From: an uncultured Rhodobacterales bacterium
GTDB taxonomy: Bacteria > Pseudomonadota > Alphaproteobacteria > Rhodobacterales > Rhodobacteraceae
Direction: 5' to 3'
Assembly (NCBI GenBank): GCA_903873585.1
Contig: CAIQOV010000007.1
Coordinates: 1,779 to 65,778 of the forward strand
Length of the DNA stretch: 64,000 nt
Shown: positions 41,611 to 50,921 of the stretch, one piece after another
How the letters are laid out: each line of letters begins with the position of its first letter
Position numbering within the stretch: position 1 is the stretch's first letter
The notes under the pieces: generated by a model
Databases searched by the model: none
What the model was told of the DNA's origin: nothing
The model's input: the letters and a program-made list of their open reading frames with translations, nothing else
Translations under genes and position numbers: made by a program

Positions 41611-41856
41611 CAAACGCAGCGCCTTGCTGGGGCGCTGGCGCGGGGCATGGGTTACACCTTTTTGCGCCCCCTATGTCCTTCAAGACCTGCCCCCCGCCGG
41701 ATGGGCGTCTTACAGACTGTCAGCCGGTGCGCGGGGCGAAGGGGGCTTTGGGCGCTGAACTATCAAGGGCCAAGGGTGAAGTCATGGCTGCAAATCGGCG
41801 TCGTTTGTGCTTTATGGGGGGCAGGGCCAGCATTTGCAGCGGCCGAGGGGGTGGGA

Positions 41857-42888
41857 ATGGACGAACTTGAAAAGGCGCTGGTCCTGAGCGTGCCAGAGCC
41901 TCGCACGTTAGAGCTGATTTTCTCGGCGGCGAACCTTGCCAAACTGCGTGCCACATATGATGTGGTTGAAACGACTTCCGATCATTTGGCCTCTTTGGGC
42001 GACGATCTGCTGGGGCGGGTGCGCTACATCATCGGCCAACCGCCGCTTTCGGCCGAAACTTTGGGCCGTTTGCGCAATTTGAAAGCCGTGCTGAATGTTG
42101 AAAGCAACCTGCTCAATAACATGCCTTATGATCAGGTGTTTGCGCGCGGCATTTATGTGCTGACAACGGGCCAAGTTTTCGCGGAACCTGTGGCCGAAAT
42201 GGGGCTGGCGATGGCGCTGAACCTTGCGCGGGGGATCGTTGACGCCGATCTGGCCTTTCGCAACGGGGCAGAACTGTGGGGCGGTGATGGCAATGGCAGT
42301 GCCCGTTTGCTGACCGGATCAGACATCGGGATCGTTGGCTTTGGCGATCTGGGCAAAGCGCTGCACCGCGTGCTGTCGGGGTTTCGCGCGAAGATCAAGG
42401 TTTATGATCCGTGGTTGCCCGAAAGCATTTTGAAAGACGCGGGCGTGCAACCGGCCAGTCTTGAAAGCGTCATGGCGCAAAGTGATTTCGTTTTTGTGGT
42501 GGCGGCTGTTACCAGTGAAAACAAGGGGTTTCTTGGCGCGCAAGGGTTCGCGGCGATGCGCAAAGGGGCGGCTTTTATCTTGTTAAGCCGTGCGGATGTG
42601 GTGGATTTTGATGCGCTGATGGCGGCGGTGAAAAGCGGCCATATCGTGGCGGCCTCTGATGTTTTCCCGCAAGAACCTTTGGCCGCTGACCATCCGATCC
42701 GCACGCTGTCCGGCTTCTTACGCTCGGCCCACCGTGCCGGAGCCTTGGATGTGGCGTTCAAGAAGATGGGCGAGATGGTGCTGGACGATATGGCGTTTAT
42801 GGAACGCGGCCTGCCCCCGATGCGCCTAAAACGGGCAGAGCGTGAGACGGTCAGCCGGATGCGGTCTAAGCCGGTCGACAAGAATTAA
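41857..42888 (+). CDS. D-isomer-specific 2-hydroxyacid dehydrogenase family
   Basis: VGFGDLG (GxGxxG), SRADVVD, DVFPQEP, SAHRAG. Confidence 0.85.
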   Translation: MDELEKALVLSVPEPRTLELIFSAANLAKLRATYDVVETTSDHLASLGDDLLGRVRYIIGQPPLSAETLGRLRNLKAVLNVESNLLNNMPYDQVFARGIYVLTTGQVFAEPVAEMGLAMALNLARGIVDADLAFRNGAELWGGDGNGSARLLTGSDIGIVGFGDLGKALHRVLSGFRAKIKVYDPWLPESILKDAGVQPASLESVMAQSDFVFVVAAVTSENKGFLGAQGFAAMRKGAAFILLSRADVVDFDALMAAVKSGHIVAASDVFPQEPLAADHPIRTLSGFLRSAHRAGALDVAFKKMGEMVLDDMAFMERGLPPMRLKRAERETVSRMRSKPVDKN

Positions 42889-42909
42889 GCGCACCGCTGT
42901 CGGGGTGCC

Positions 42910-43767
42910 TTAGTGCCCCGACACATGGCGTGCTGCGGCGGCAGAGGCGGCGCGGCAGGCTTGTTCAAGGGGCGCTGTGTTGGCAATTTGTGCTGCCAGC
43001 GCCCCGATGAACGCATCGCCCGCGCCGTGGCTGCTGACGACCTGCACCTTTTGGGCAGGAATTTGCAGGCCTTCGTCATGGGCACCCCATGCGGCTAAGC
43101 CTATGCTGCCAGCCGTCACGATCACGGTTTCGAACTGGTCCGCCAGACGTTTGGCAGCCTCGGCGGCGCTGGGCAGGCTACAGACGGGTTGGGTGCCCAT
43201 CATCTCGGCCTCGACCGCGTTCACGACCAGAATATCAACAAGGCGGCAAAACTCGGCCCCCAAGGGCCGCCACGGGGCGGCGTTGAGCACGGTTTTCACA
43301 CCGCGCTTGCGCGCTTCGCGCGCTGCGGCAAGGTTTGTCGCCTCGGTCACTTCGTTTTGCAAGATCAGCACGCTGACACCGGCCCAGACGGCATCGTGGG
43401 CCAAAGCCGTGGCGGCAATGTGCAGGTTTGCGCCCGAAACTATGGTCGCGGCATAATCGCCCGCGGCATCTTGGATTGCCACGCTCATCCCTGACCCAAC
43501 ATCTGGCACGGTGGCGATGAAGCGATCATCAACGCCGCCCTTTAGCAGGTTTGCCCGCAGGAAACTGCCAAAGTCGTCGTTGCCCACGGCCCCGACCATC
43601 CGGCTTTCGATGCCTGCTTTGGCGGCTGAAACGGCCTGATTGCCCCCCTTGCCACCGAATTTTGGAAACCAGCGGCTGCCAATCGCCGTTTCATCTTTGC
43701 GGGGCAAATGGTCGGCGTCGACCATGATGTCATAATGCAGGCTTCCGACGGTGAGAACGATGGGCAT
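42910..43767 (-). CDS. PfkB/ribokinase-family carbohydrate kinase
   Basis: FGGKGGNQA, GAVGNDDFG, LQNE, LNAAP, GAGDAFIG. Confidence 0.9.
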   Translation of the reverse strand: MPIVLTVGSLHYDIMVDADHLPRKDETAIGSRWFPKFGGKGGNQAVSAAKAGIESRMVGAVGNDDFGSFLRANLLKGGVDDRFIATVPDVGSGMSVAIQDAAGDYAATIVSGANLHIAATALAHDAVWAGVSVLILQNEVTEATNLAAAREARKRGVKTVLNAAPWRPLGAEFCRLVDILVVNAVEAEMMGTQPVCSLPSAAEAAKRLADQFETVIVTAGSIGLAAWGAHDEGLQIPAQKVQVVSSHGAGDAFIGALAAQIANTAPLEQACRAASAAAARHVSGH

Positions 43768-43774
43768 GGTGAAT

Positions 43775-44629
43775 TTACAATCTGCGTTTGGATTGAACCG
43801 CGCGCATGGTGCGGTTCAGGTTGGCATCTGCGGCTTTGCGGTCACGCTGGGCGACGGCGACGAACAGGGCATCGAGCAGGTTCAGTTGGGCGATGCGGGC
43901 GGTCGCGTTCTCTCCAAGCAGGGGTGAGTTTTGGGCGGTGGAACACAGCACCACATCCACCAGTTTGGCCAAGGGGCTTTGCGGATAGTTGGTCACAGCA
44001 ATTGTGCGCGCGCCGTTGCGGCGGGCCATCTCTGCCGCTTCCAGCACGGCTGCGGTAGAGCCAGAGTGCGAAAAGGCAATCGCCACATCGTCGGGGCCAA
44101 GCAGGGCCGCCGACATCATCATCATATGCGCATCATCAAAGACTGACGTGCGAATGCCGATGCGCAGGAACTTGTGGCTGACATCGCGCGCAATCTGGGC
44201 AGAGCCGCCAAAGCCATAAAAGTCGCGCTGTTTGGCGCGGGCAAGGTAGTCTGCGGCGCGGTCGAAGGCTTCCAGATCCAGAATGGCAAAGGTTTCTTCC
44301 AGCGCCTGCATGGCGGTGCGAAACACTTTCTGCACGATTTCGCCCGCCGTATCATCCTCGCCGATCTCGGCGTGCAGGCCTGCGGTGTCTGAGCGGTAAT
44401 AGTCGACCAGCCCTTGGCGGAAATCGCGAAAGCCTTCAAAGCCCAGTTTTTTGGCAACTTTCACGACCATTGCTTCGGACACCGCCGATTTCAGGGCGAT
44501 TTCGCGCAGGGGCGTTGCCTCGTCTATGTCTTTGCGGGCAAGAATTTCGGCGGCCACCTTGCCCTCTAGCGGGGTGAGGCTTGGCAACCTCATGCGTATT
44601 TGCGCGCCAACAGCCCTTGGATCACCCAT
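43775..44629 (-). CDS. RpiR/MurR-family regulator, AlsR-like
   Basis: HTH VSEAMVVKVAKKLGFEGF and SIS domain HKFLRIG, DAHMMMMSA, FSHSG, PLLGENATARIAQL. Confidence 0.9.
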   Translation of the reverse strand: MGDPRAVGAQIRMRLPSLTPLEGKVAAEILARKDIDEATPLREIALKSAVSEAMVVKVAKKLGFEGFRDFRQGLVDYYRSDTAGLHAEIGEDDTAGEIVQKVFRTAMQALEETFAILDLEAFDRAADYLARAKQRDFYGFGGSAQIARDVSHKFLRIGIRTSVFDDAHMMMMSAALLGPDDVAIAFSHSGSTAAVLEAAEMARRNGARTIAVTNYPQSPLAKLVDVVLCSTAQNSPLLGENATARIAQLNLLDALFVAVAQRDRKAADANLNRTMRAVQSKRRL

Positions 44630-44631
44630 GC

Positions 44632-45588
44632 TTACCCCTGCTTTCCACCACCCACGCCCGATGCGAACTTGTCGATCAGCATCGCAACAATGATGATGAT
44701 ACCCGTGGCAAGCAGTTGATAGAAGGCCTGTACGTTAAGAAGTGTTAATCCGTTGCGCAATGTGCCCAGAATGATGCACCCGATCAGCGTGCCGGGAATT
44801 GACCCGCGCCCCCCCATCAGCGATGCCCCCCCGATGGCCGAGGCGGCGATGGCGTCAAGTTCCCACAGGGTGCCCATGGTGGGTTCGGCAGCACCTAAGC
44901 GACCAATCAGGATCATCGCGGCGACGGCGGCCATGAAGCCTGAAATCATATAGGCGGCCAGTTTGGTCAGCACCACCGGCACACCCGCAATGCGCGCGGC
45001 TTCAGGGTTGCCGCCGATGGCCATGAAATACTCGCCCAAGGGGGTTTTGTTCAGGATCACCCAAGCCACCACCGCTAGGGATGCGACGATAATGACGGGG
45101 GTGGGCACATCAAGGAAGGTGCCGTTGGTCAGGGCGCGAAACCCATCGGGCAAGCCAAAGATCGGTTGGCCGCCGGTGTAAATCAGCGCCAAAGCCCGAT
45201 AAAGCGACAAGCCGCCGAGTGTCACGATAAAAGGCTGCAACCCGCCCCAAGCGATCAGCGCGCCATTCACAAAGCCGCAAACCACCCCCGCGGCCAGCGC
45301 GCCAAAGATGGCCAGCGGTATCGGCACGCCTGCCACCAGCATGGCCGCGCCCAAAATTGCGGTCAATGCGGCTACCGGCCCCACCGACAGGTCAATCCCG
45401 CCCGAGATGATCACCAAAGTCATCCCAAGGGCGATGCAGGCGTTGATCGAGGATTGCTGCAAAATGTTCAGCAGGTTCGGCGCGGTCAGGAACACCGGCG
45501 ACATTAAGGCGAAGACGATCGAGATCAAGATCAGCCCGATCAAGGTTCCCGCATCGCGGAATTTGATGCTTTTGAAATAGGTGCGCAT
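44632..45588 (-). CDS. Monosaccharide ABC transporter permease (RbsC/AlsC type)
   Basis: GMTLVIISGGIDLSVG, QPFIVTLG, GGNPEAARIAG, ELDAIAASAIGGASLMGGRG. Confidence 0.93.
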   Translation of the reverse strand: MRTYFKSIKFRDAGTLIGLILISIVFALMSPVFLTAPNLLNILQQSSINACIALGMTLVIISGGIDLSVGPVAALTAILGAAMLVAGVPIPLAIFGALAAGVVCGFVNGALIAWGGLQPFIVTLGGLSLYRALALIYTGGQPIFGLPDGFRALTNGTFLDVPTPVIIVASLAVVAWVILNKTPLGEYFMAIGGNPEAARIAGVPVVLTKLAAYMISGFMAAVAAMILIGRLGAAEPTMGTLWELDAIAASAIGGASLMGGRGSIPGTLIGCIILGTLRNGLTLLNVQAFYQLLATGIIIIVAMLIDKFASGVGGGKQG

Positions 45589-45595
45589 GGGATCC

Positions 45596-47074
45596 TCAGG
45601 TAGACGGAATGGCGTGGCGGGCGATATGCGCCTCGGTGATCTGGTCGGGGCCTAGGGTGGCGCTGATCTTGCCCTCACGCATGACCAAGACGCGGTCGGC
45701 AAGGCGGATCACCTCGGGCAGTTCGGAAGATACGAACAAAACGGCCTTGCCCTCTGCAGCCAGCCGTTCGATCAGGTCGTAAATCTCAGCCTTAGCGCCC
45801 ACGTCGATGCCGCGTGTGGGTTCGTCAAACAGGAAAATCTGGGTGCCCGCGGCCAGCCAACGCCCGATGATGGCCTTTTGCTGGTTGCCGCCTGAAAAGC
45901 TGCCGATCGGGCGCGCCACATCCAAGGGGCGCAGGTTGACTTGGCGCATCAGATCTTCGGTTTTCGCACGCAGCATCGCCCTGCGGATCACCCCAAGGCG
46001 CGAAAAGCGGCGCATCGCGGGCAGGCCGGTGTTCGAGGTGACGGGGCGGTGGCGGATGATGCCGTCGCGCTTGCGTTCTTCGGGCACAAGGCCCAAGCCG
46101 GCCGTGATGCGCGCACGCGGGCCAGCGGGAATAACTGCGCCCGCAACCTCGATGTGACCTGTGTCAGCCCGGTCAACCCCGGCAATCAGGCGCATCAGTT
46201 CGGTGCGGCCAGAGCCTACAAGCCCCGCGATGCCAAGCACCTCTCCGGCGCGCAGGTCAAAGGTTGCGTCTTGCACAGCGCGGCCACGGCTTAGGCCGAT
46301 AACTTTAAGAAGTGTGCGGTTGGTGGCATGGGACTGGTGGGTGGATTTGGCAAGTTCACGCCCCACCATCAGTTCGATCACATCGGAAACTGGCGTGGCG
46401 GGGATAGGCACCTGCGCAATCAAACGACCATCGCGCAGGATGGTGGCGGTCTGGCAAACGCGAAACACCTCATCCATCTTGTGGCTGACGTAGATCACGC
46501 TGACCCCTTGTGCCGACAGCTTGGCAATCACCGCCACCAGCTTTTCAAACTCGGCAGGTGTCAGCGACGAGGTCGGCTCATCCATGGCGATAATCTTGGC
46601 ATTGCCGCGCAAGGCCTTGGCGATTTCCACGATCTGGCGCTGCGCCACGCGCAGGCTGCGGATCGGGGCCGTCACGTCAATCGCGGGATCAAGGGCCGAT
46701 AGCAGGCGTTTGGCTTCAGCCTCTTGTCGGGCGCGGTCGACGAAGATGCCGCGCCGCAGGGCGTGGCCCAGAAAGATGTTCTGCGTAACCGTCAATTCAG
46801 GCACTTGTTGCAGTTCCTGATGGATCATCGCAATGCCCGCCGTCGTTGCATCGCGCGGCGAGGCGATGTGCACCGCGGCCCCGTCAATCGCGATCTGACC
46901 GCTGTCACAGGTAAGAACACCGCACAGGATGTTTAAAAGCGTCGATTTGCCTGCGCCATTCTCGCCCAACAGCCCATGCACTTCGCCGGGTTGCACGGTT
47001 AACGCCACGCCGTGCAAGACTTTGGTTAGCCCGAAGGTTTTTTGCACGTCAGTCAGGGAAAGGCGGGGGGGCAT
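45596..47074 (-). CDS. Monosaccharide ABC transporter ATPase (tandem ABC domains)
   Basis: GENGAGKST, MDEPTSSL, GLVGSGRTE, FSGGNQQK, FDEPTRGIDVGAK. Confidence 0.95.
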   Translation of the reverse strand: MPPRLSLTDVQKTFGLTKVLHGVALTVQPGEVHGLLGENGAGKSTLLNILCGVLTCDSGQIAIDGAAVHIASPRDATTAGIAMIHQELQQVPELTVTQNIFLGHALRRGIFVDRARQEAEAKRLLSALDPAIDVTAPIRSLRVAQRQIVEIAKALRGNAKIIAMDEPTSSLTPAEFEKLVAVIAKLSAQGVSVIYVSHKMDEVFRVCQTATILRDGRLIAQVPIPATPVSDVIELMVGRELAKSTHQSHATNRTLLKVIGLSRGRAVQDATFDLRAGEVLGIAGLVGSGRTELMRLIAGVDRADTGHIEVAGAVIPAGPRARITAGLGLVPEERKRDGIIRHRPVTSNTGLPAMRRFSRLGVIRRAMLRAKTEDLMRQVNLRPLDVARPIGSFSGGNQQKAIIGRWLAAGTQIFLFDEPTRGIDVGAKAEIYDLIERLAAEGKAVLFVSSELPEVIRLADRVLVMREGKISATLGPDQITEAHIARHAIPST

Positions 47075-47131
47075 GGGATAATCCGCAAGGAAAGGGTCTG
47101 CCCGAAACGGTGTTCGGGCAGACCGGTTGGC

Positions 47132-48175
47132 TTACTTCAGCAAAGCGGCGCGCAGGGCGGCCATGTCGCTGGTGGCATAGGTGTCGATATTGTCTTTGGT
47201 GATCAGGGCTTGCGGCGTTGCCACAACGCGGGGCAGCTTTTGCCCCGCCAGCAGGCGCAAGCTTACTTCCAGCGCGATTTCACCGGTCAGAACCGGGAAG
47301 GAGTCAACGGTGCCAGTCAGATCACCCGCTTTGATCGCGGCATAGGCATCTGAAATCCCGTCCGTGCCGAAAACCGCGACTTGGTCTTGCTTGCCAGCGG
47401 CTTTGACAGCTTCAACCACACCCAAAGCCATGCCGTCGTTGTTGGCATAAAAGCCAATCATGTCGGGGTATTGTTGCAAAATGGTGGTGGCGGCGTTGAA
47501 CGCCTCTTCGCGCGACCAGTTGGCAGGCACGGAAGCGACGACTTCAAACTTGCCGTTGGCGTTGATCGTCTCGGTGAAACCGGCGGTGCGCTGGCCTGCG
47601 GCGTAAACGCCCGGCTGCCCTTCGATCACGGCGACTTTGCCGCCTTCGGGGCGGTTGGCGATGAACCAATTGGCCACGTTCACGCCGTTGCCCTTTTGCA
47701 CGTTGCCAACATAATGCTCGGCCGAGGGGATCACGGCGTCATTGACGTTCAGAACCGGAATGCCAGCCGCCTTGGCCTTTTCAACCGCCGGAATCAGGTT
47801 GGCGTCGGTCTGCGGCGACAAAAGCAGGGTCGCAAAGCCTTGGTTGATCAGGTCTTCGGCGATCGAAAGCTGGCCCAGTTGGTCGCCTTCGTTCGCGGCG
47901 GCTTGGTAGACCAGCGTGATGCCCAGCTTGTCAGCGACGTTCTGGTAGCCTTGGCCCAGCGAGCGCCAGTATTCGTTGGTCAGCGTCTTGGACACGCCAC
48001 CGATCTTGGTGCCAGCGGGCGGGGCTGCCAGCGGGCCGAACTTGGCGTCAAGTTCCGACCAATCCATCCGATCCGGCTCAGAGTCGGAATTCAGCGCGGC
48101 AAGGTCAGCATGGGCTGCGCCCATCGACAAAGCCAAGACACCAGCAGCGAGTGCGCCTTTTAGAAAGTGTTGCAT
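47132..48175 (-). CDS. Sugar ABC substrate-binding protein, AlsB/RbsB-like
   Basis: Signal peptide, KTLTNEYW, EGDQLGQL, IEGQPG, ANWSRE, NNDGMALG, GTDG; RBS GGGAGG. Confidence 0.92.
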   Translation of the reverse strand: MQHFLKGALAAGVLALSMGAAHADLAALNSDSEPDRMDWSELDAKFGPLAAPPAGTKIGGVSKTLTNEYWRSLGQGYQNVADKLGITLVYQAAANEGDQLGQLSIAEDLINQGFATLLLSPQTDANLIPAVEKAKAAGIPVLNVNDAVIPSAEHYVGNVQKGNGVNVANWFIANRPEGGKVAVIEGQPGVYAAGQRTAGFTETINANGKFEVVASVPANWSREEAFNAATTILQQYPDMIGFYANNDGMALGVVEAVKAAGKQDQVAVFGTDGISDAYAAIKAGDLTGTVDSFPVLTGEIALEVSLRLLAGQKLPRVVATPQALITKDNIDTYATSDMAALRAALLK

Positions 48176-48220
48176 TTGGATCCTCCCGTTTTCAACACAA
48201 ATTAACAAGATATGGTAAAG

Positions 48221-49216
48221 TTAAGCCGCCAGCGCCCCCTTTGCGACGGCAAGCCGCGCAATATCCAAGGCGATGACGGGGTCTTGGGCAGATTGCGCAT
48301 GGGTCAGGCGGTTGTCGCCCGCCATGGCATGAACGCCCGCCATCAGGCGGCGGACGGTGCGGATATTGGCGGCGCATTCGGCCACCGGATCTAGGCCCGA
48401 CGCATCGGGGAAGGTGTCAAAATAGATCGCCCCGTCAAAGCCCGCGCGGTGCACTTCGCGCAGCAACTCCAGCGTTGCAACTTCGTGAACCGAGGCGACC
48501 ATCAAGCCGTCATCGCGCTTGGCGTAGCCATCGTTCAGGTGCAAACCCAGCAGCTTGCTTTTGCGTGCAATCAAGGCGGCGGCAAAGGCGGGTTGTTCGT
48601 CAGCATACAGCGAATGGGCAAAGTCGATTGTAACGCCCAGGTTGGCAGCCCCCACTTCGCCAATCGCCAAAAGCGTGGTCGATGCATCGTTCAGCAGGCT
48701 GTACGACCGTGGTTCGTTGGGCTTGTATTCTATGGAAATCATGCAGTTGGGATCATGCGCGCACACTTCTGCGATGCCTGAAATCTCGGCCTCCCATAAG
48801 GATGTGTAATCGCATTGAAAAGCGTAGTCGTAGCCATCTTGGCCCAACCACAGCGTCATCATCGGTGCGCCCATCTCGCGTGCGGCATCAATGCCGCGCT
48901 TGGTCAGATCAATCGCCTCGCGTCGCACCGCAGGGTCGGCGTTGGTAAAAGCGCCGCGCATAAATGCGGGGTTGGTGTAAAAGCGCATGGCAAGGCCCGA
49001 AACACCAAGGCCGTGATCCCGCACCATTTGCGCAACCGCTTTTGGATCTGCGCTCACGTGATCGGGATAGTTTAGGTCAAGTTCTGACAACCCATCCACC
49101 GTTGCCGCGCGTGCGACCATTTGCGCAAGCGAGGGCTTGCCCGTCAGCTCTGGCCAATAGGCCAAGGCATTGGAGGCAAACGAATTGATCCGCGTGGCAA
49201 AGCGCTGTCCCAGCAT
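48221..49216 (-). CDS. Xylose-isomerase-family TIM-barrel sugar isomerase
   Basis: GAFTNADPAVRREAI, WLGQDG, IEYKPNEPR, DFAH, HLNDGYAKRDD, YFDTFP metal-ligand motifs. Confidence 0.85.
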   Translation of the reverse strand: MLGQRFATRINSFASNALAYWPELTGKPSLAQMVARAATVDGLSELDLNYPDHVSADPKAVAQMVRDHGLGVSGLAMRFYTNPAFMRGAFTNADPAVRREAIDLTKRGIDAAREMGAPMMTLWLGQDGYDYAFQCDYTSLWEAEISGIAEVCAHDPNCMISIEYKPNEPRSYSLLNDASTTLLAIGEVGAANLGVTIDFAHSLYADEQPAFAAALIARKSKLLGLHLNDGYAKRDDGLMVASVHEVATLELLREVHRAGFDGAIYFDTFPDASGLDPVAECAANIRTVRRLMAGVHAMAGDNRLTHAQSAQDPVIALDIARLAVAKGALAA

Positions 49217-49232: not shown

Positions 49233-49260
49233 CTTCACAAATAAATCAAATTTTGTGAAG
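49233..49260. promoter_or_regulatory. AT-rich palindrome upstream of the sugar operon (candidate RpiR/AlsR operator)
   Basis: CTTCACAAA-N10-TTTGTGAAG, 17-44 nt upstream of the isomerase ATG. Confidence 0.55.
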
Positions 49261-49436
49261 AGGCAAAGAAATTCTGATGCGGCTGTGGCGTAAAAAGACA
49301 GCGCGCACCGCGCCAAGGCGGGGTGGATTGGGCCACGACCCGCCACCTTCGGGGCTAAACCCGTGGCCGCTTGCCCCGTGATCAGGGGCGGTTGGATGTC
49401 ACACGTCTGTTACATCTCTTCGATATTTCCCGAATT

Positions 49437-49769
49437 ATGGATATGCCAAACGCCCTTGCCGCCTTTGATGCGCTGGGTCAGCCCAGTCGGCTGACGGTGT
49501 TTCGTTTGCTGGTGCAAACGGGCGGTGCGGGGCTGGCTGCGGGCGACATTGCCACGCGGCTGGATATGAAACCCAACACCCTATCGACCCATCTGGGCAT
49601 CTTGGAAAGCGCAGGGCTGATTGCGGCGCAACGGCAGGGCCGCTCGATCCGCTATTTCGCCCAGATGGAGGGTCTGCGCGGCCTGATGGCGTGGATGTTG
49701 CAAGATTGTTGCGGCGGCAACCCCGACGCCTGCGCCCCCTTGTTAGATATGATCACTCAAAAAGGCTGA
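49437..49769 (+). CDS. arsR: ArsR-family repressor with C-terminal CC-X6-C arsenite site
   Basis: ALGQPSRLTVFRLL, NTLSTHLGILESAGL, QDCCGGNPDAC. Confidence 0.88.
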   Translation: MDMPNALAAFDALGQPSRLTVFRLLVQTGGAGLAAGDIATRLDMKPNTLSTHLGILESAGLIAAQRQGRSIRYFAQMEGLRGLMAWMLQDCCGGNPDACAPLLDMITQKG

Positions 49770-49773
49770 AAAA

Positions 49774-50274
49774 ATGCAAACCAAACCTTACAACGTGCTG
49801 TTCTTGTGCACCGGCAACTCTGCCCGCTCGATTTTGGCCGAAGCGGTCTTGAACCGCGAGGGCAAGGGTCGCTTTGCCGCCTATTCGGCAGGCTCGCTCC
49901 CCGCAGGTGTGCCCCATCCGCTGGCCATCAGCCTGTTGGAACGCGAAGGCATCGACACGGCCTTTGCCCGTTCCAAAAGCTGGGATGAGTTTGCCACCCC
50001 CGATGCGCCGAAAATGGATTTTGTCTTTACCGTCTGCGACAATGCCGCCGCAGAAGAATGCCCCTACTGGCCCGGTCAGCCGATGACCGCGCATTGGGGC
50101 TTGCCTGATCCGGCGGCAGCCACCGGAACCGATGCTGAAAAGTCATTGGCTTTCGCGGCAACCTACGCCTCGCTGTTGCGCCGCATCCAAGCCTTTTGCG
50201 CCTTGCCCTTGGCCACGATTGACGCGCTTAGCCTGAAATCGCACTTGAAAGACATCGGGGAGAACATCCAGTGA
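49774..50274 (+). CDS. arsC: Arsenate reductase, LMW-PTP (thioredoxin-coupled) type
   Basis: LFLCTGNSARS (CX5R), TVCDNAAAEECPYWPG, HWGLPDP. Confidence 0.9.
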   Translation: MQTKPYNVLFLCTGNSARSILAEAVLNREGKGRFAAYSAGSLPAGVPHPLAISLLEREGIDTAFARSKSWDEFATPDAPKMDFVFTVCDNAAAEECPYWPGQPMTAHWGLPDPAAATGTDAEKSLAFAATYASLLRRIQAFCALPLATIDALSLKSHLKDIGENIQ

Positions 50275-50921
50275 CCCCCCGCGCCATAGTATCCGAGGCG
50301 CTGGGCACGGCCCTGCTGGTGGCCACTGTGATCGGCTCTGCGATCATGGCGCAGGCCCTGACGCAGGATGTGGGCGTGCTTTTGCTGGCCAATGCGCTGG
50401 TAACGGGCGCGATGCTGTTTGTGCTGATCACCGTCTTGGGGCCTTTATCGGGTGCGCATTTCAACCCGCTGGTGACGCTGATCATGGCCGCGCGCCGCGA
50501 TCTGGCTTGGGGCGCGGTGCTGCCCTATATCGGCGCACAGGTCGCGGGGGCCTTGGCGGGGTTGGTTTTGACCCATGCGATGTTTGACCTGTCGCTGGTG
50601 CAAATTTCAACCCATGTGCGCGGCGGGCAGGGGCAGGTCTTGGCCGAAGCTGTGGCGACCTTTGGCCTGATCTTCACGATCTTCGGCGGCATCCATGCCC
50701 GCGCCAATGTGCCTGCCTTGGTGGGCGGCTATATTACGGCGGCTTACTGGTTCACCTCTTCCACCAGTTTTGCCAACCCGATCATGTTGCTGGCGCGGTC
50801 GATGACCAACACACCGTCGGGCATCATCCCCACCGCCACCCCGTCGTTCTTGCTGGCCGAGGTGGTGGGCGGTGCTTTGGCGGCGGTTCTGGCGGGCTGG
50901 CTGTTTGCCAAAGACGCCTAA
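50271..50921 (+). CDS. MIP-family aquaglyceroporin, AqpS-like arsenite channel, with altered NPA motifs
   Basis: SEALGTALL, SGAHFNPLVT, YWFTSSTSFANPIMLLAR; GTGA overlap with arsC. Confidence 0.82.
   Translation: MTPRAIVSEALGTALLVATVIGSAIMAQALTQDVGVLLLANALVTGAMLFVLITVLGPLSGAHFNPLVTLIMAARRDLAWGAVLPYIGAQVAGALAGLVLTHAMFDLSLVQISTHVRGGQGQVLAEAVATFGLIFTIFGGIHARANVPALVGGYITAAYWFTSSTSFANPIMLLARSMTNTPSGIIPTATPSFLLAEVVGGALAAVLAGWLFAKDA

Follow-up and report, generated by a model that had tools for sequence, protein, structure and literature searches.

A stretch of 64,000 nucleotides (nt) from an uncultured Rhodobacterales bacterium (GenBank assembly GCA_903873585.1, contig CAIQOV010000007.1, positions 1,779 to 65,778), here termed the window, carries a compact set of genes predicted to serve the import and catabolism of a rare sugar. 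Six minus-strand open reading frames (ORFs), separated by intergenic gaps of 2 to 57 nt, fill positions 42910 to 49216 and form a tight, single operon. The encoded proteins were assigned to domain families using Pfam models and NCBIfam models with curated cut-offs. Listed from the upstream end, they are (i) an isomerase of 331 amino acids (aa) with a xylose isomerase (XI)-like TIM barrel (48221..49216), whose Pfam match is AP_endonuc_2 (PF01261; 3e-21, 76.8 bits), (ii) a periplasmic sugar-binding protein (SBP) of the CUT2/Peripla_BP_4 type (47132..48178; PF13407, 8e-53), (iii) a CUT2-type ABC ATPase with two nucleotide-binding domains (45596..47074; two matches to PF00005, ABC_tran), (iv) an ABC permease of the RbsC/AlsC type (44632..45588; PF02653, BPD_transp_2), (v) an RpiR-family regulator composed of HTH_6 and SIS domains (43775..44629; Pfam and NF008458), and (vi) a ribokinase-like PfkB sugar kinase (42910..43767; PF00294, PfkB, 2e-43). 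In the databases, the names of the cassette proteins are generic ("TIM barrel protein," "sugar phosphate isomerase/epimerase," and "ribokinase"). A preliminary description of this DNA had reported the same operon of six genes, and all six ORFs with their domains were found as described there; the motifs that it quoted (EYKPNEPR, DFAH, HLND, GSLHYD, HKFLRIG, DAHMMMMSA, PLLGENATARIAQL, KTLTNEYW, ANWSR, and GTDG) are all in the sequence.

The SBP frame is readable from a TTG at 48208 (47132-48208), and the true start is likely the ATG at 48178, in agreement with the 347-aa product of the gene callers. Scanning for terminator-like structures on the minus strand revealed a GC-rich 12-bp hairpin in the gap between the SBP and ATPase genes (47095..47124), which may be an intra-operon attenuator or an mRNA stabilizer that raises the expression of the SBP over that of the other genes. 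A second hairpin on the same strand (42891..42908) is located just past the stop codon of the kinase gene and faces a convergent gene for a 2-hydroxyacid dehydrogenase; it is weak, since terminator-like sites in this region do not exceed the expectation from shuffled sequence.

Conservation and distribution of the cassette

The cassette is a conserved and mobile unit. A scan of species-representative genomes yielded 80 loci with isomerases that are 67 to 90% identical to that of the window. All six genes were present in identical order at 50 of these loci, and 10 further loci are of the same type and are broken by contig ends, while the sequences flanking the cassette vary among the 80 loci. 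Carriers belong to the Paracoccaceae, Rhizobiaceae, Phyllobacteriaceae, and Methylobacteriaceae and include one gammaproteobacterium, in which the same six genes are found and the isomerase is 57% identical to that of the window. The isomerase gene is also present on 102 plasmid records, the hosts being Rhizobium, Agrobacterium, Sinorhizobium, Roseibium/Labrenzia, Paracoccus, Pantoea, Duffyella, Klebsiella, and Vibrio; the three plasmid loci that were inspected contain all six genes. Annotated whole cassettes are found on pAtS4e of Agrobacterium vitis S4 (AVI_RS27180-27205) and pRmeGR4a of Sinorhizobium meliloti GR4 (C770_RS33615-33640). More broadly, over 5,000 of the candidates that were scored belong to the isomerase family at an E value of ≤1e-20. 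A search for a hidden third enzyme, in which all ORFs within 10 kb around the 80 loci were clustered, identified none that is recurrent beyond the six genes.

A short form, consisting of the isomerase, RpiR-type regulator, and kinase genes with the same operator (see below) and without the ABC importer, was observed at 16 of the 80 loci (L003, L004, L005, L016, L018, L019, L026, L028, L029, L041, L042, L060, L062, L070, L072, and L080). Short and full forms can be present in the same genome (L001/L003 and L002/L005), and the short form has several independent origins in the isomerase tree.

Probable operator and regulator

A perfect 28-bp palindrome, CTTCACAAA-N10-TTTGTGAAG (49233..49260), overlaps the promoter region and precedes the isomerase start codon (ATG) by about 44 nt. 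It occurs once in the window, where none is expected by chance. Its degenerate form, CTTyAyr-N8-16-yrTrAAG, is present in the 200 nt that precede the isomerase gene at 66 of 77 loci, compared to 10 matches in the remaining 2.8 Mb of those loci. When the genome from which the window derives was scanned for this motif, only the cassette site had the right geometry; three other matches differ in spacing and are chance-like. The palindrome is thus the probable operator of the RpiR-family protein encoded by the cassette, and the latter is the probable repressor of the operon. This protein scored 429 bits with NF008458 (PRK11337), above the cut-off of 378 bits of what we take to be the model for E. 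coli RpiR-type proteins, and 330 bits with the AlsR model NF040776, below the cut-off of 400 bits. The motif HKFLRIG is identical in E. coli AlsR, which also has DAHIMMMSA and PLLGRNASARILQL among the common motifs.

In Rhizobiaceae and Pseudoprimorskyibacter, a CUT1 ABC importer precedes the cassette, with one or two genes of the RbsD/FucU family behind it. The 28-bp palindrome is found a second time ahead of this module at five loci, L046, L051, L054, L057, and L059, which are several Rhizobium loci and the Pseudoprimorskyibacter locus, and for this reason the CUT1 importer and the RbsD/FucU-family genes likely form part of the same regulon as the cassette. The module is located at L096:1643-8885 in A. 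vitis S4 (pAtS4e), at about 4700-9900 in L051, L054, L057, and L059, and at L046:4400-9900. In A. vitis, it encodes a binding protein of 553 aa with no Pfam or NCBIfam match and only a 30-bit PDB match, as well as a kinase scoring above the ribokinase cut-off (302 versus 300 bits). Overall, an RbsD/FucU-family gene was found directly upstream of the isomerase gene at three loci and within 10 kb at approximately 13 loci. RbsD acts on ribose and allose.

The isomerase

The isomerase combines the PF01261 domain with the E-x-K-P-x-E-P motif and the full set of predicted carboxylate and histidine metal ligands. Its residues of an XI/ApsI-type bimetal site are E163, K165, D198, H201, H226, D235/D236, and D267. 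In an alignment of 91 sequences, E163, K165, D198, H201, D235, D236, and D267 are invariant, and position 226 is His in 87 sequences and Asp in 4. When aligned by profile to E. coli XylA, E163/K165, D198/H201, H226, D235, and D267 fall on metal-binding or catalytic positions of XI; this alignment begins at residue 78, so that H53 lies outside the part that could relate it to the ring-opening His of XI. The NCBIfam scores amounted to 72 bits for XI versus 21 to 32 bits for epimerase models. Ketose 3-epimerases (DTE/DPE) possess an E-D-H-E metal and catalytic tetrad with two catalytic Glu residues; this tetrad is absent here, where the last ligand is the invariant D267 and the XI-type Lys165 is present. 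The earlier placement of this enzyme in the xylose isomerase family is thus borne out, the sequence being that of an XI-type bimetal aldose-ketose isomerase.

Among PDB entries, 3KTC was the best match (164 bits), compared to approximately 55 bits for class I xylose isomerases and approximately 43 bits for the L-rhamnose isomerase of P. stutzeri. The source of 3KTC is Pectobacterium atrosepticum, and the UniRef name of the P. atrosepticum protein is D-apiose isomerase. This enzyme, ApsI, shares 33% identity with the isomerase and is its nearest characterized relative. In a tree of the 91 sequences, the longest branch parts the ApsI-like sequences from the cassette clade, and the two groups can be told apart by D52-H53, N167, and H226 in the cassette clade versus F-P/T, R, and D in the ApsI-like sequences, and by KPNEPR versus KPREPR. 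Given the invariant ligands at XI positions and these clade-specific differences, the protein is very probably a bimetal aldose-ketose isomerase that acts on a free sugar with a specificity unlike that of ApsI. Clustering with a characterized enzyme whose described pathway fits the gene set was not observed, since ApsI is separated by this long branch and the other apiose enzymes are absent (see below).

A paralogue of the isomerase, with about 51% identity, forms part of a second uncharacterized cluster (L091, G000:C33:99342-103223; G000:C33:100026-109966). Besides the paralogue, this cluster encodes a GntR regulator, a member of the BtpA/SgcQ family, a protein resembling M42 peptidases, an XylB-like FGGY kinase with a score below the cut-off, an amidohydrolase, a protein resembling FucU, and permeases of the CUT1 ABC type. 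It directly adjoins the six-gene cassette in three genomes of Paracoccaceae (L024:1-8600, L035:200-6700, and L038:790-9730), which suggests that the two are probably functionally linked.

The kinase

Scored with the ribokinase model TIGR02152, for which the cut-off is 299.65 bits, the kinase of the window reached 208.3 bits and the cassette kinase of A. vitis 213.4 bits, compared to 301.8 bits for the neighboring rbsK product. By the model cut-off, the cassette kinase is classed as ribokinase-like but not as a ribokinase. Since in A. vitis S4 the cassette kinase and a kinase that passes the ribokinase cut-off are encoded at the same locus, the two are not redundant.

The kinase is 32% identical to E. 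coli RbsK and carries GSLHYD and SHGAGD. If the pocket of RbsK, presumably as in structure 1RKD, is formed by N14, D16, K43, N46, A98, I100, I110, I112, E143, I251, and D255, then D16, K43, N46, I112, E143, and D255 are kept, and the changes are N14 to H, A98 to S, I100 to A, I110 to A, and I251 to H, which are conserved in cassette kinases of four lineages. Lid positions have smaller residues, and four pocket positions are smaller or more polar than in RbsK; we take the kept polar residues to hold the cis-diol and the 5-OH of ribofuranose. The preliminary description had drawn attention to GSLHYD in place of the usual GS.N.D. The difference is real and conserved in the family but is weak evidence of specificity, since V occupies this position in the A. 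vitis kinase that scores above the ribokinase cut-off, and the idea that GSLHYD proves a new specificity was consequently rejected. More weight is carried by the score below the cut-off, by the larger and more polar pocket, and by the presence of a true ribokinase at the same A. vitis locus.

The importer

The SBP scored 178 bits with the AlsB model (NF007254; cut-off, 335 bits) and 128 bits with the RbsB model. Its best natural relatives in the PDB include 8WL5 ("Allose ABC transporter") and 1GUB (E. coli AlsB), and 5DTE, which we take to be an allose complex, is also near the top of the matches. Entries 5IBQ/4RY0, presumably the apiose-binding protein of R. etli, reached only approximately 83 bits. 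We mapped the sugar contacts according to what we take to be the contact residues of the E. coli ribose-binding protein, the numbering of which is used here. The SBP keeps N13, R141, N190, and D215 and has AlsB-type Trp residues at two stacking positions, whereas D89, R90, and Q235 are replaced by Asn, Asp, and Ser, respectively. These features indicate a ligand of the allose/ribose kind. The ligand may be other than allose itself, because the contacts equivalent to D89 and Q235 differ from those of three allose binders. A signal peptide (MQHFLKG...AHA) is followed by an extension of about 40 aa (DLAALNSDSEPDRMDWSELDAKFGPLAAPPAGTK...) that precedes the canonical fold (window positions 48058-48178, minus strand), and there is a C-terminal tail missing from AlsB and RbsB; both the extension and the tail are conserved in orthologues of Rhodobacterales and Rhizobiales.

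The ATPase is below the cut-off for every named sugar (AraG, 512 bits; XylG, 469 bits; RbsA, 439 bits; AlsA, 418 bits). The permease is nearer RbsC (275 bits) than AlsC (230 bits), both scores being below the cut-off.

Proposed pathway and alternatives

Taken together, these data suggest, with a probability that we estimate at roughly 0.8, that the cassette is a self-regulated module which isomerizes and then phosphorylates an uncharacterized rare sugar. This sugar would be ribo-configured. In the proposed mechanism, it would be captured by the periplasmic SBP and carried by the ABC importer into the cell, where the metal-dependent isomerase of the XI/ApsI type would convert the free aldose into the 2-ketose and the ribokinase-like PfkB kinase would phosphorylate the primary hydroxyl of the ketofuranose. 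The RpiR-type repressor would act on the 28-bp palindrome and be released upon binding of the sugar or its phosphate to the SIS domain. Our preferred substrate route would proceed from D-allose to D-psicose (D-allulose), D-psicose-6-phosphate, and fructose-6-phosphate. As the module encodes no epimerase, the last of these steps would fall to the housekeeping ribulose-phosphate 3-epimerase (Rpe). We infer the reaction order, the substrate, the phosphorylation site, and the role of Rpe from sequence comparison.

D-Allose is preferred because the SBP and the regulator are of the allose type, because the enlarged ribokinase pocket would suit psicofuranose, and because a kinase in the psicose locus of Klebsiella pneumoniae provides a precedent. 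D-Psicofuranose differs from ribofuranose by one additional CH2OH, which is attached to the anomeric carbon. The assignment of D-allose/D-psicose as the specific substrate is nevertheless tentative, and we rate it at somewhat less than even odds. Several observations weigh against it. (i) For no named sugar does the SBP, the permease, the ATPase, or the kinase reach the NCBIfam cut-off, and AlsB, 8WL5, and 5DTE keep the Asp and Gln at the positions of D89 and Q235, where the SBP has Asn and Ser. (ii) The P. stutzeri L-rhamnose isomerase, to which the isomerase is only weakly similar (~43 bits), is, to our knowledge, the one enzyme type that interconverts allose and psicose. (iii) No AlsE-like or RpiB-like gene was found within 10 kb of the cassette at any of the 80 loci, whereas the allose and psicose loci that were checked (E. 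coli als and K. pneumoniae) encode their own epimerase. (iv) A single RPE-family gene is present in 11 of 29 carrier genomes, so that there is no obligatory second epimerase. (v) D-Allose is rare in nature, whereas the cassette is common among bacteria from soil, marine, and freshwater habitats and among those associated with plants. Since the cassette has no epimerase and 11 of the 29 carriers have one RPE gene, the route via psicose-6-phosphate would depend on a putative side activity of Rpe; RPE and AlsE each reportedly accept the substrate of the other, a finding attributed to Chan et al. in 2008. The preliminary description had proposed isomerization followed by phosphorylation of D-allose/D-allulose or a similar sugar. 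The general scheme is supported by the gene set, the metal ligands, and the kinase score below the cut-off, and the part that is weakened is D-allose/D-allulose, for which the SBP contacts differ and an AlsE-type epimerase is missing. It is on balance doubtful that the cassette is the first example of a non-phosphorylative D-allose pathway that begins with the isomerase and includes a dedicated kinase for the 6-phosphorylation of psicose.

Other substrates were considered. An aldopentose (D-arabinose, D-ribose, D-lyxose, or D-xylose-like) could be converted to D-ribulose or D-xylulose and then to the pentulose-5-phosphate, for which no further dedicated enzyme would be needed. Such a route would agree with a cassette that travels self-sufficiently, with no third enzyme at any locus, and with the 11 of 29 carriers that have only the housekeeping Rpe. 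It would also agree with the RbsD/FucU-family neighbors, which score 70 bits for FucU versus 30 bits for RbsD, the sugars of FucU-type proteins including D-arabinose, with a permease closest to RbsC, and with the true ribokinase that is linked to the cassette in Rhizobiaceae. However, the kinase is a PfkB protein, whereas the pentulose 5-kinases known to us are FGGY enzymes and not PfkB. Moreover, a pentulofuranose ring uses O5, so that a ribokinase-like furanose pocket would be a poor fit for 5-phosphorylation. The SBP is also nearer to allose than to ribose binders and lacks an Arg matching R90 of the ribose-binding protein, and we consider a pentose route unlikely. An ordinary D-ribose operon, in which the SBP, importer, and ribokinase would be accompanied by an accessory TIM-barrel gene, seems very improbable. 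In some records, the kinase is listed as "ribokinase" by the NCBI annotation pipeline PGAP, the permease is RbsC-like, and E. coli AlsR also responds to ribose, but the cassette kinases reach only 208 to 213 bits relative to the cut-off of 300, as opposed to 302 bits for the separate A. vitis kinase of the same locus, and the SBP lacks the residues matching not only R90 but also D89 and Q235. Furthermore, the isomerase gene is the first behind the operator and is kept in the 16 short and 50 complete copies.

A branched-chain or otherwise unusual plant or algal sugar is a distinctly unlikely substrate, either by a D-apiose route independent of transketolase or by conversion of D-hamamelose to a ketohexose that the kinase would act upon. 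The nearest characterized homologue of the isomerase acts on such a branched plant sugar, many carriers are plant associated (Rhizobium, Agrobacterium vitis, Mesorhizobium, Phyllobacterium, and Pantoea), and the enlarged and more polar ribokinase-like pocket would suit ribose with an extra hydroxymethyl group; if fructose were the product, the module would be self-sufficient, consistent with the absence of epimerase neighbors and with the carriers that have a single RPE. Against apiose stand the clade-specific positions and the very long branch that set the isomerase apart from ApsI, the SBP score of approximately 83 bits with 5IBQ/4RY0, presumably the apiose-binding protein of R. etli, and the lack of a transketolase. 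D-Hamamelose (2-C-hydroxymethyl-D-ribose) has no H on C2, so that a hydride-shift isomerase would need a carbon shift. Its catabolism would require a metal-assisted 1,2-carbon shift (alpha-ketol rearrangement) to fructose or psicose prior to phosphorylation at O6 by the kinase, and we regard this as hardly probable: we know of no precedent for a carbon shift in the XI-like enzyme family and of no assigned bacterial genes for D-hamamelose, and no literature on genes for its catabolism was found. If true, hamamelose catabolism would make the two-enzyme module self-sufficient. Finally, a ketose such as D-psicose might be imported, with the TIM-barrel protein acting as a 3-epimerase on the ketose or its phosphate to give fructose or fructose-6-phosphate with no outside enzyme, including in a kinase-first order. 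Family PF01261 indeed also holds ketose 3-epimerases and sugar-phosphate epimerases (the NCBIfam matches include fructoselysine 3-epimerase and IolO), the missing AlsE would be accounted for, and the K. pneumoniae psicose locus follows a logic of kinase plus epimerase. Nevertheless, the XI hallmark E-x-K-P-x-E-P-R with its invariant Lys, the Asp instead of a catalytic Glu at the last metal position, and scores that are highest for isomerases (ApsI, XI, and L-rhamnose isomerase) and far lower for epimerase models make an epimerase quite improbable.

Neighboring genes

The convergent 2-hydroxyacid dehydrogenase gene (41647-42888), encoding a D-isomer-specific enzyme, ends 21 nt away from the kinase gene, and gene callers place its start later (343 aa). 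Since it is not conserved beside the cassette elsewhere, it is probably unrelated and was rejected as a member of the system. Divergent from the cassette, an arsenic resistance trio (49371-50921) encodes an ArsR-type helix-turn-helix regulator, an arsenate reductase of the low-molecular-weight phosphatase type, and a MIP-family channel. This trio is ordinary and is not a conserved neighbor of the cassette at other loci.

Novelty and relevance

No characterized enzyme or published pathway for this gene set was found in NCBIfam, the PDB, or the searchable literature, in line with the earlier proposal of a candidate new rare-sugar pathway. The pathway type, namely, import, isomerization, and phosphorylation, is classical, and it is the enzyme set, the isomerase clade, and the kinase clade that are uncharacterized as far as these sources show. 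Literature searches retrieved allose or psicose utilization in E. coli, Listeria, and Klebsiella only; there was no publication for PDB entries 3KTC or 8WL5, none on a psicose or allulose kinase, none outside E. coli on allose in combination with an RpiR protein, a ribokinase, and an enzyme of the XI-like type, and nothing on genes under the terms "apulose" and "hamamelose."

The cassette is thus a solid target for enzyme discovery that holds no surprise in kind. Identifying the sugar would assign two enzyme subfamilies, the sister clade of ApsI and the ribokinase-like kinase, as well as the AlsB-like SBP and the RpiR regulator, the probable operator of which is clearly defined. Should D-allose/D-psicose be correct, the cassette would represent a second, isomerase-first route for both sugars, and an allose isomerase and a psicose kinase would be of use in rare-sugar production and for biosensors. 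Should it be another plant or algal sugar, the compound would be a nutrient important to rhizosphere, phycosphere, and freshwater bacteria.

Comparison with known systems

With xylose isomerase and the P. stutzeri-type L-rhamnose isomerase, the cassette isomerase shares the E-x-K-P-x-E-P motif, the bimetal ligands, and the (beta/alpha)8 barrel, but it is about 60 to 100 residues shorter and scores only 43 to 55 bits. It further differs from XI in having His at the ligand equivalent to Asp245 and Gly at the equivalent of Asp257.

The D-apiose transketolase pathway has an enzyme of the same XI-like TIM-barrel subfamily of approximately 330 aa and the same logic of isomerization followed by phosphorylation beside an ABC importer. 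Carter et al. are said to have described this pathway in Pectobacterium in 2018, with the ApsI isomerase, an FGGY apulose kinase, and a split transketolase. A preprint that cites Carter et al. places apsI in the Pectobacterium apiose cluster. In agreement, a Pectobacterium-type locus (L095) contains an apsI-like gene with genes for an FGGY kinase, a split transketolase, and an ABC importer, and another locus (L094) has the split transketolase. The cassette, in contrast, has a PfkB kinase instead of the FGGY apulose kinase, no counterpart of the split transketolase AptA/B, and an SBP of a different type; neither the FGGY apulose kinase nor AptA/AptB was found in the window or among the recurrent neighbors of the 80 loci.

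The psicose locus of K. pneumoniae (KP1_RS12820-12850; PMC6020474) resembles the cassette in that a ribokinase-family kinase is genetically tied to the use of a ribo-configured ketohexose, but it has a single permease, a DeoR regulator, its own allulose-6-phosphate 3-epimerase, and no isomerase. The rbs operon (RbsDACBK) shares the architecture of SBP, permease, and ATPase and the kinase fold, and some cassette loci include an RbsD/FucU-family gene. It differs by its LacI-type RbsR, as opposed to the RpiR-type regulator of the cassette, which in addition has the isomerase and an altered kinase pocket.

Like the cassette, the E. coli als regulon features an RpiR-family repressor with common SIS-domain motifs, a CUT2 importer with an AlsB-type SBP, and one regulated catabolic operon. 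In E. coli, AlsR is responsive to D-ribose as well as to D-allose (PMC5934670). The identities to the E. coli K-12 proteins are 43% for AlsR, 34% for AlsB, 38% for AlsA, and 38% for AlsC. The preliminary statement that the regulator and SBP "closely resemble" AlsR and AlsB was therefore worded too strongly (43% and 34%), although both are of the allose/ribose type and the regulator motifs are common to the two systems. Its statement that AlsK, RpiB, and AlsE are absent from the window was confirmed by search: E. coli AlsK had no tblastn match in the window and only weak ROK matches (22 to 29%) on other contigs, RpiB had none in the window or in the whole 3.2-Mb assembly, and AlsE had none in the window, with AlsE-like genes only on contigs C51 (a true Rpe) and C48 (divergent and RPE-like). 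Nor was there an AlsK orthologue beside the cassette at the 80 loci, three of which have unrelated ROK genes (27 to 30% identity). The C48 gene is located outside the window in a minus-strand group (G000:C48:33428-37272) that encodes an ROK-family regulator, a transaldolase, the divergent epimerase of the RPE family (132 bits with the rpe model, the cut-off of which is 212 bits), and an ROK sugar kinase. This pairing of kinase and epimerase resembles AlsK/AlsE, and a divergent RPE paralogue is present in about half of the cassette-carrying genomes. The E. coli als system phosphorylates first, by means of the ROK kinase AlsK, after which RpiB isomerizes and AlsE epimerizes the phosphate, whereas in the cassette AlsK, RpiB, and AlsE are replaced by a predicted free-sugar isomerase of the XI type and a PfkB kinase.

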